Assembly (NCBI RefSeq): GCF_002854065.1
Contig: NZ_CP024147.1
Strand: one strand, 5' to 3'
Source: Escherichia coli
GTDB taxonomy: Bacteria; Pseudomonadota; Gammaproteobacteria; Enterobacterales; Enterobacteriaceae
Length of the DNA stretch: 64,000 bases
The position numbers were made by a program, and so were the translations under genes. Shown here in pieces: positions 43,384-47,056 of the stretch; the first letter of the stretch is position 1; the number at the start of each line of letters is the position of its first letter. The notes under the pieces were generated by a model. It worked only from the letters and a program-made list of their open reading frames with translations, was not told the DNA's origin and did no database searches.

Positions 43384-43643
43384 GGTGTTTCCTCACCTTG
43401 CTCTTCCTGCTGGTGATAAACCAGCGACACCGCCAGCACGCCCTCTACGTTGCGTACTGACTCAATGGTTTGGATCAGCGTTTCGCTGTCTTCTGCTTCC
43501 ACCACCACAATCAACTGACCGCTCGGCGCGTCGCTGACAGCAACTTCACAGCCGGGAAAGGCGTTCAGTTGGGTGCTGATGTCTGAAATTCGTTCGCTTT
43601 TGGCCTGCACGACCAGGCTGCAAACTTGCCAGTTAGTGTGCAT
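43380..43643 (-). CDS. napD: NapA chaperone NapD
   Basis: 87-aa ORF coupled to napA (4-nt overlap). Confidence 0.9.
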
Positions 43644-44127
43644 GGAGATACTCCGCAGTTATGGCTGATACCGGACAGCTGGCTGCACATGCTCCACATC
43701 CGTTGCAAAGTTGGCTATTAAGTTGCGGCTGGTAGATCCCGGAGAGCGTCGGGCGAAAGATAATTGCCATTGGCTCACAGCTATCCTGACAGCGGCGGCA
43801 TTCAACTGACTGATACGCCAGGCACGCGTCCCCAATGGTGAACTGCAAATCCCAGGCCCTGGTGTGGCGCGGAGAAAATAGCGATTCGGGGCAAGCCTGC
43901 GCGCAGGCGTAACAGAAGCTGCACTCGTTATTTTTGAAATTAACGCTCGGATAGCCGCCCGCGCCGCGTTGCAGGATGTTGTTTTCACAAGCATTAATAC
44001 AGGCGTCGCAGCGGGTGCAATGGGTCAGAAAATGAGATTCATCACCGGACCAGGGCGGACGGATACCGTTACTGGCTTTGCGCCAGCGACCAGTGAGTAT
44101 GCCCCGACGGGATGCATCAATCTTCAC
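43633..44127 (-). CDS. napF: Ferredoxin-type protein NapF
   Basis: 164-aa ORF with multiple CxxCxxCxxxCP motifs; first gene of the nap-ccm cluster. Confidence 0.92.
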   Translation of the reverse strand: MKIDASRRGILTGRWRKASNGIRPPWSGDESHFLTHCTRCDACINACENNILQRGAGGYPSVNFKNNECSFCYACAQACPESLFSPRHTRAWDLQFTIGDACLAYQSVECRRCQDSCEPMAIIFRPTLSGIYQPQLNSQLCNGCGACAASCPVSAITAEYLHAH

Positions 44128-44235
44128 ATTGACCTTCCATCATTAACGCGCTCTGAAAATTGAGAGCGACCAAATAAACCGCATAATTAATAAGCCATTT
44201 TTATAGCCGCTAAGATATTAAAGGATGTGTCAAAG

Positions 44236-44400
44236 ATGCATACCCCGATCGAGGTAAAACCTGTAGCAGGATCAAAAGAGTGGCGGGAAGCGTGGCAAAA
44301 ACGGGCTTTTGCTCACATTTCAAATGGTTATAAATATATTTATATAGCGATTAATTCACCAGAGATATTTCTGCTGGTTTGTTCTCTCATCAGAATTTAA
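44236..44400 (+). CDS. yojO: Small ORF (54 aa), candidate YojO
   Basis: ATG 44236 to TAA 44398-44400 encodes MHTPIEVKPVAGSKEWREAWQKRAFAHISNGYKYIYIAINSPEIFLLVCSLIRI; below the ORF-track cutoff; overlaps the napF regulatory sites, so coding status is uncertain. Confidence 0.4.
   Translation: MHTPIEVKPVAGSKEWREAWQKRAFAHISNGYKYIYIAINSPEIFLLVCSLIRI
44241..44256 (-). promoter_or_regulatory. NarL/NarP 7-2-7 heptamer pair in the napF control region
   Basis: TACCCCG-AT-CGAGGTA: two inverted TACYYMT-like heptamers with 2-bp spacing, about 115-130 bp upstream of napF ATG. Confidence 0.6.
44262..44275 (-). promoter_or_regulatory. Putative FNR site upstream of napF
   Basis: Minus-strand TTGAT-CCTG-CTACA: one perfect FNR half-site, centred 20 bp upstream of the NarP site, as expected for the napF promoter architecture; second half-site poor. 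Confidence 0.4.
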
Positions 44401-44533
44401 CACTAAAAGAGCAGGTAAAATTGTCTGAATATTCTTTAAGTTATTCATAAAGCAAATTAATAAATCTGATGAATATGTTAACCTTCAGCGACATCATCGG
44501 TGCAAACCTATAAATGAAGAAGGAAAGCAAAAA

Positions 44534-45022
44534 ATGAAGACCATTCTACCTGCAGTATTGTTTGCCGCTTTCGCCACCACTTCCGCCTGGGCGGCAGAGA
44601 GCGTCCAGCCACTGGAAAAAATCGCGCCTTATCCACAAGCTGAAAAAGGCATGAAGCGTCAGGTGATTCAGTTAACCCCGCAAGAAGATGAATCTACCCT
44701 GAAAGTAGAACTGTTAATCGGTCAGACGCTGGAAGTCGATTGCAATTTTCATCGTCTCGGCGGGAAGCTGGAAAGCAAAACGCTGGAAGGCTGGGGCTAT
44801 GATTATTATGTCTTTGATAAAGTTAGCTCGCCGGTTTCCACGATGATGGCCTGCCCGGATGGCAAGAAAGAGAAGAAATTTGTCACCGCGTATCTGGGCG
44901 ATGCTGGAATGCTGCGTTACAACAGCAAGCTGCCGATCGTGGTGTATACGCCAGACAATGTAGATGTGAAGTACCGCGTCTGGAAGGCGGAAGAGAAAAT
45001 TGACAACGCGGTAGTTCGCTAA
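44534..45022 (+). CDS. eco: Ecotin (periplasmic serine protease inhibitor)
   Basis: 162-aa ORF with signal peptide; matches ecotin as recalled. Confidence 0.95.
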
Positions 45023-45028
45023 ACTGCC

Positions 45029-45395
45029 GTGAAGTGCGGCACCCCGTAGGTTGGATAAAGCGGTCACGCCGCATCCGACATCTAACGCCCGAGCCGGTTG
45101 CCTGATGCGACGCTGACGCGTGTTATCAGGCCTACACCGCTGTGAAGTGCTCCACCCCGTAGGTCGGATAAGGCGGTTACGCCGCATCCGACATCCAACG
45201 TCCGAGCCGGTTGCCTGATGCGACGCTGACGCGTCTTATCAGGCCTACACCGCTGTGAAGTGCGGCACCCCATAGGTTGGATAAGGCGGTTACGCCGCAT
45301 CCGACATCCAACGCCCGAGCCGGTTGCCTGATGCGACGCTGGCGCGTCTTATCAGCATACGCCACATCCGGCATACCATGCCGGATGTGGCACAT
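45029..45395. repeat. BIME/REP array: three tandem 113-bp units plus a terminal perfect hairpin
   Basis: Unit starts at 45029, 45142 and 45255 (period 113), each carrying two REP-like palindromes; followed by perfect 14-bp inverted repeat gccacatccggcat/atgccggatgtggc (45361-45391) abutting the mqo stop. Confidence 0.85.
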
Positions 45396-45397
45396 CA

Positions 45398-47056
<1,659 letters not shown>

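Follow-up and report, generated by a model that had tools for sequence, protein, structure and literature searches.

yojO, an annotated short open frame across napF activator sites of Escherichia coli, is most probably an incidental reading frame

Genomic context and annotation

The window analysed here is a stretch of 64,000 nt from the E. coli contig NZ_CP024147.1. In it, napA, napD and napF lie on the minus strand, followed by a 406-nt spacer, by eco on the plus strand and then by mqo. The yojO frame is located inside this spacer (GC content 0.35), between the divergent napF and eco:

43633..44127, minus strand: napF, GTG start, first gene of the napFDA... operon; its control region is the yojO DNA
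44236..44400, plus strand: yojO open frame, 54 codons and TAA; b4604 / RefSeq WP_001301465.1
44534..45022, plus strand: eco (ecotin), the next gene on the yojO strand

The frame starts with ATG at 44236, comprises 54 sense codons and ends with TAA at 44398-44400; the ORF listing contains a GTG-extended version of 57 aa that starts at 44227. The 441 bases around yojO are 100% identical to E. coli O157:H7 strain TR01, and in the 100% identical O157:H7 genome "yojO: protein YojO" (WP_001301465.1) is annotated at exactly 44236-44400, with an identical protein. The counterpart in K-12 MG1655 is b4604, described as "uncharacterized protein YojO". The name yojO, which a preliminary description of this DNA had proposed for the 54-codon ATG frame, is therefore correct, and yojO is an already known, annotated E. 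coli gene. Among 40 evenly spread complete-genome matches, a CDS is called over yojO in all 40, labelled either "protein YojO" or "hypothetical protein".

Compared with K-12 yojO (b4604), the locus and the orientation between napF and eco are shared, and 52 of the 54 residues (96%) are identical. The window carries the O157 allele, which has E6 and N40 for G6 and D40 of K-12 and otherwise differs in nothing structural. As for family models, YojO homologues carry a precomputed Pfam hit (PF28594, a family named YojO), while a peptide scan against local copies of Pfam and NCBIfam yielded no family model matching YojO. PF28594 records the yojO annotation and is not independent evidence.

Several features of the neighbouring DNA were also recorded. 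The eco start differs between strains in RefSeq, which use one of two in-frame ATGs, at 44513 (169 aa) or at 44534 (162 aa); the ribosome-binding-like sequence AAGGAAAG between them favours the downstream start, which is the one used in K-12. In the eco-mqo spacer (45049-45357), three tandem REP/BIME-type units match Rfam naRNA4 (RF02564) with 56.2, 75.3, and 60.5 bits, two of which exceed the gathering score. The Rfam scan (E up to 1, positions 43500-45500) reported nothing in the yojO region, only these REP-type naRNA4 matches downstream of eco.

Control sites of napF within the frame

The following elements of the napF control region overlap yojO or adjoin it (positions relative to the napF start refer to the putative +1 at 44204):

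44204, minus strand: putative napF P1 transcription start (+1), obtained by setting the 7-2-7 centre (44248.5) at -44.5
about 44211..44220, minus strand: invariant block TAAGATATT, which reads on the minus strand as the overlapping -10-like hexamers TATCTT and TAATAT, 3 nt apart
44241..44256, no strand: NarP/NarL 7-2-7 site TACCCCG-AT-CGAGGTA (TACCCCGATCGAGGTA), yojO codons 2-7, centre -44.5
44262..44275, no strand: FNR-like 14-mer TGTAGCAGGATCAA, yojO codons 9-14, centre -64.5
44302..44323, no strand: conserved block with CRP-type half-site TCACATTT, yojO codons 23-29; the 16-mer 44302-44317 is centred at -105.5
44324..44351, no strand: ModE-like palindrome ATGGTTATAAA-N6-TATATAGCGAT, yojO codons 30-39, centre 44337.5 (-133.5)
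44353..44400, plus strand: tail of the frame, codons 40-54, without recognised site; contains all three frameshift alleles and the SNP cluster 44373-44391

The napF 7-2-7 site is known to lie at -40 to -49 (PMC4549865), and from this position the napF P1 +1 was placed, by inference, at 44204. Relative to it, the yojO frame spans -32 to -196. This single anchor puts the 7-2-7, FNR-like and ModE-like sites at -44.5, -64.5, and -133.5, respectively. The napF sites reported by Darwin and Stewart and by McNicholas and Gunsalus are Fnr at -64.5 and ModE at -133.5. That the frame lies over the NarP/NarL and FNR sites of napF, as had been supposed before this analysis, is borne out by codons 2-7 and 9-14; the frame extends further than had been described, since it also covers the CRP-like block and the ModE-like palindrome.

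These sites are not equally distinct. The 7-2-7 motif match taken by itself is not above chance in the 64 kb (4 found versus 2.65 expected). In the FNR-like site, the right half ATCAA is perfect and kept across genera, and the left half is weak, with 2 of 5 positions matching. A genome scan with the FNR consensus and 3 mismatches was far too permissive to discriminate. The published FNR ChIP-seq peak for napF is at 2301675 in older K-12 coordinates. Assuming an offset of ~1976 bp between the K-12 genome versions, this peak would fall inside yojO; converted with that presumed offset, it comes to approximately nucleotide 46 of yojO, ~12 bp from the FNR-like site. The offset agrees with a SELEX coordinate inside eco and with the K-12 annotation of yojO.

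The conserved TTTGCTCACATTTCAA at 44308-44323 contains TCACA, a CRP-type half-site, and Stewart is said to have reported in 2009 a Crp site upstream of the napF Fnr and NarP sites. Given the half-site and this report, the block at 44302-44323 is considered a candidate CRP site. According to the consensus and to its position, the palindrome at 44324-44351 appears to be a ModE-like site, and it is better in Citrobacter than in the window. Within TAAGATATT, TATCTT and TAATAT are putative -10 elements of napF P1 and P2, which fits the dual promoters P1 and P2 that the napF control region presumably has. ModE activation of nap has been described (PMC8139620), and reviews confirm control of nap by ModE and by FNR/NarP.

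Two further observations concern the DNA between napF and the frame. The sequence AGGATGTGT at 44222-44230 (-18 to -26 of the putative napF P1 +1), i.e., in the promoter spacer, is invariant in Escherichia, Citrobacter, Salmonella, and Leclercia. In the napF leader, a weak minus-strand terminator-like hairpin of 6 pairs, including 3 G-C, at 44166-44182 (GCGGTTTATTTGGTCGC, followed by the T-run TCTCAATTTT) overlaps a promoter-like element of the plus strand; the number of hairpins equals the shuffle expectation.

The frame in related species

The napF upstream region was aligned for 11 sequences from four genera (Escherichia, Citrobacter, Salmonella, and Leclercia). The relatives are L001, E. 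albertii (L002), Escherichia sp. E1130 (L022/L023), five Citrobacter, Salmonella, and Leclercia. L001 is a divergent Escherichia lineage labelled E. coli, whose spacer shares only 88% identity with all complete E. coli genomes; the E1130 spacer is at most 91.7% identical to them. A NapF scan of contigs provided at least 7 usable enterobacterial loci, with E. fergusonii and the named cryptic clades outside the sample. The NapF cluster members are mostly labelled E. coli, plus one partial sequence labelled Klebsiella pneumoniae, and other Escherichia species are absent among them. One locus with fragmented genes in an error-prone assembly (L025) was excluded, and another (L037), where the frame lies at a contig end and its tail is unreliable, supports no conclusion.

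In this alignment, invariant columns cluster in blocks on the NarP, FNR, CRP-like, and ModE-like sites, and the 7-2-7 pair is conserved in 11 of 11 sequences. Variable columns in the alignable part of the frame are distributed over the three codon positions as 24, 25, and 26 (of 39 each), i.e., without three-base periodicity. A check of codon-wise against motif-wise substitution, which the preliminary description had suggested, thus came out as motif-wise conservation, with pN/pS no different from that of other frames (see below).

Among the sequences sampled, E. coli and Escherichia sp. E1130 alone have the full 54 codons. The frame of E. albertii and of L001 is closed by a TAA at codon 21, its sole interruption. 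ATG is replaced by GTG in three Citrobacter and in Leclercia and by GAG in C. werkmanii; early stops follow at codon 17 in these four Citrobacter and at codon 16 in Leclercia. The frame of C. amalonaticus has 21 codons. Salmonella keeps the ATG and has 43-64 codons, with tails that are unrelated and variable in length. Retention of the frame and of its start codon beyond what DNA identity provides, as a functional small-protein gene would show, was not observed in these relatives.

The pseudo-peptide "HTPIGV..AGSKE" persists where the frame is closed, because its residues are what the NarP and FNR sites spell in this frame, and HTPIGVNAVAGSKE is retained even in C. werkmanii, which lacks the start codon. 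This bears on a dual-use reading, in which YojO is a real small protein under selection and the DNA that encodes it doubles as the site of napF activator binding. Across Escherichia, residues 1-20 hardly vary, as might be expected of a selected protein; these invariant residues, however, fall on the NarP and FNR sites and remain where there is no start codon, and the frame itself is closed in E. albertii, L001, Citrobacter, and Leclercia. Together with the substitution data and the expression signals given below, this makes a dual-use protein very unlikely.

As for the origin of the frame, the lineages with an open frame are set apart from those with a closed one by one T/C difference in codon 21. 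According to synonymous divergence of napF from E. coli, E1130 (pS 0.045) is closer than L001 (0.091) and E. albertii (0.316). Since E1130 is nearest to E. coli, parsimony favours a single opening: in the common ancestor of these two, a TAA-to-CAA change would have extended the frame from 20 to 54 codons. Such a young, lineage-restricted frame might be transcribed or translated at a low level with an unselected product, any function residing in rightward transcription. This alternative, too, is judged unlikely; recombination could mislead the parsimony argument, and the promoter evidence discussed below is divided. It is also conceivable that the relation is reversed: with the single TAA as the only interruption in E. 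albertii and L001, these lineages may have lost an older gene (pseudogenisation).

Separately, napD of E1130 is identical to that of the window, napF is 98.8% identical, and the yojO frame is 84% identical. Such a pattern points either to recombination that involved the nap genes or to strongly uneven constraint.

Substitution pattern and allelic variation

Over its 165 nt, yojO of the window shows 26 differences from that of E1130, with 7, 8, and 11 of them at the first, second, and third codon positions. The resulting pN and pS values are 0.138 and 0.239 (pN/pS 0.58; versus 1, Fisher p=0.30). Although 0.58 is numerically below 1 and counts against an incidental frame, it lies just under the range of the other five frames (0.78-1.69). 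Against allele L038, yojO has a pN/pS of 1.04, and the other frames range from 0.47 to 2.44. The flanking genes of the same pair are far more constrained: pN is 0.003 in napF (pS 0.045) and 0.008 in eco, and napD shows no difference at all. Nonsynonymous divergence of yojO is thus 20-50 times that of its flanking genes, which is hard to reconcile with a selected dual-use protein, as is the lack of 3-nt periodicity. Frame-specific purifying selection (dN/dS below 1 with third-position bias) was not detected, the power of the comparison being limited by the 54 codons.

Within E. coli, seven alleles show 21 single-base states, 14 of them non-synonymous and 7 synonymous, and 13 of the 21 fall within 44373-44391. 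No other stretch of the spacer is as poorly conserved as the tail at 44353-44400, where 2 of 48 columns are invariant. Within codons 40-50, 1-nt frameshifts have arisen independently in three alleles, whose products would have 63, 71, and 71 aa. Numerous independent assemblies carry these alleles (383 and 178 indexed blocks of the collection, and 13 contigs). In a 50-nt allele-specific search, one of them was present in 4-5 of 5426 complete genomes; the other two gave no match among complete E. coli genomes, i.e., a frequency of about zero. That frameshift alleles circulate also argues against a selected protein.

As an observation on the tail itself, the hypervariable 19 nt at 44373-44391 hold two of the three frameshift alleles and are far more variable than napF, eco, and the adjacent spacer.

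Composition provides no coding signature either. GC3 equals 0.33 for yojO versus 0.58 in the genes of the window, again at odds with a selected protein. The codon-usage log-likelihood ratio is 0.00, within the bottom 1.2% of real 53-codon windows, although the test is weak, napF itself having 0.023. Regarding length, an ATG frame of at least 54 codons turns up in 930 of 5000 shuffles (18.6%, six frames) that preserve the dinucleotides of the 406-nt spacer, and the length of yojO is not beyond chance.

Practically every complete E. coli genome in the sample has an open frame here, which speaks for a dual-use protein and against an incidental frame. However, only 5.9% of the possible substitutions in the frame create a stop. 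With so few stop-creating substitutions and the shallow diversity of E. coli, openness within the species is expected under neutrality too.

The O157 change in the NarP/NarL heptamer

At position 44252 the window has A versus G in K-12, so that the right heptamer is CGAGGTA versus CGGGGTA. In yojO the same change replaces Gly6 with Glu, which is a radical replacement. Of 5414 complete E. coli genomes, 444 contain the exact 50-nt window allele at 44252; A at this position is also found in E. albertii, Salmonella, and Leclercia. The consensus of the NarL/NarP heptamer is AKRRGTA, which CGAGGTA still fits. The heptamer consensus thus appears to be kept despite a radical change of the residue, the same point as is made by the motif-wise conservation.

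Signals for expression and published records

Two elements upstream of the frame could serve its expression:

44160..44187, plus strand: sigma-70 promoter-like TTGAGA-16-CATAAT, 10/12 match, inside the napF leader and directed towards yojO and eco
44221..44229, plus strand: Shine-Dalgarno-like AAGGATGTG, 6-10 nt upstream of the ATG, part of the invariant block AGGATGTGT

The start codon is accompanied by a ribosome-binding-like sequence, as a functional small-protein gene would require, and this ATG with its Shine-Dalgarno-like sequence counts in favour of a dual-use protein. The bases of AAGGATGTG, at the same time, do not vary in any of the four genera, even where the frame is missing.

TTGAGA-16-CATAAT is the promoter that was predicted by Shimada 2014 under an RpoD-holoenzyme genomic-SELEX peak, in vitro (PMC3946193). 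This binding is in line both with a dual-use protein and with a young frame serving rightward transcription. In the latter case, transcription would interfere with the face-to-face napF promoters P1/P2, or the element would act as a distal eco promoter. The predicted rightward start is ~10 nt from the putative napF +1, on the opposite strand, and no terminator-like site was found between yojO and eco, both of which fit that explanation. Against it, promoter-like matches in the region equal the shuffle expectation (2 versus 1.6), the TTGAGA -35-like hexamer is confined to E. coli and E1130, the element is absent in Citrobacter and Salmonella, and eco has its own predicted promoter (PMC3946193). 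On the basis of these predicted elements, it is plausible that a rightward transcript, translated or not, causes napF interference or serves as a distal eco promoter.

The boldest version of these ideas combines the features listed above: yojO would be a very young de novo gene running through four napF activator sites, opened by the TAA-to-CAA change and translated from a constitutive promoter opposed to those of napF. This seems very improbable. If true, it would represent natural gene birth in dense regulatory DNA, with yojO transcription and napF activation being mutually exclusive.

As for published records, yojO is one of 111 K-12 genes of the "No Information" class in dataset S3 of the y-ome study (PMC6412132), where the class means no evidence in EcoCyc, EcoGene, UniProt or RegulonDB (PMC6412132). 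Literature mentions of yojO are restricted to lists (SELEX tables, a probe-design failure, a codon-bias table, and the same dataset S3), and no ribosome-profiling, tagging or proteomic result for yojO was found in the searchable literature.

Homologues and predicted structure

Homologues were searched for with a word-indexed search and with an exhaustive phmmer search against 1.84 billion representatives (E up to 0.001). The latter reports 15 hits, of which 14 are short ORFs, either starting with the Escherichia or Salmonella version of the yojO sequence or representing fragments of it. The remaining hit is a 965-aa protein with E=4.4e-4. According to these searches, yojO is an orphan, and the absence of homologues elsewhere in the phmmer search further disfavours a selected protein.

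Single-sequence AlphaFold2 predicts one helix at residues 14-51, with pLDDT 79 in the best model and 54-79 across models. The helical model counts in favour of a dual-use protein; as a prediction, however, this single helix is uninformative and provides weak evidence for a helix.

Proposed explanation

The sequence comparisons indicate that yojO is most probably an incidental open frame in the activator-binding region of napF and not a working protein gene. On the same grounds we infer that no functional protein is made from it. Of the two alternatives that the preliminary description had left side by side, an annotation artefact is favoured, and a real protein with dual-use DNA is not, the frame being closed in E. 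albertii, Citrobacter, and Leclercia.

In the proposed explanation, 44236-44400 would work as the upstream activating region of the divergent promoter of napF (periplasmic nitrate reductase), with sites for NarP/NarL (7-2-7), FNR, probably CRP, and ModE following one another from the napF side. Selection on the binding sites would hold these sequence blocks constant. One frame across the sites presumably happens to be stop-free in E. coli, with an ATG adjoining the NarP site, and such a stop-free frame with an ATG by the NarP site was annotated as yojO. The frame itself is under no detectable protein-coding selection, and its site-free codons 40-54 evolve faster than the flanking non-coding DNA and tolerate frameshifts. 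Conservation of DNA motifs rather than of codons makes the frame most likely an incidental ORF.

Such an outcome matters for annotation, as practically all E. coli genomes in RefSeq list yojO as a protein, and Pfam now has a family devoted to it. By the comparative evidence, the "conserved residues" of YojO would be the NarP, FNR, CRP-like, and ModE sites read in one frame. yojO would thus offer a clear example of regulatory-site conservation that mimics protein conservation, with homology-based pipelines perpetuating the call. If the protein were real, it would represent unusually dense dual-use DNA, in support of which nothing was found.

Comparison with known systems

Compared with the K-12 napF (aeg-46.5) control region, the spacing of the 7-2-7, FNR-like, and ModE-like sites agrees, and the blocks are conserved in four genera. 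The differences are that the left half of the FNR site is poor in the window and that the CRP site rests on a half-site. The published work on napF regulation, moreover, concerns the K-12 allele and not the O157 allele of the window.

In comparison with spurious, or "phantom", short ORFs in intergenic regulatory DNA, yojO is likewise an orphan with AT-rich third positions and no coding substitution pattern. Unlike phantom genes, yojO has not been reclassified, and the 2019 listing keeps it as a "no information" gene (PMC6412132). Its annotation is likewise self-propagating in RefSeq, as is the case for phantom ORFs.
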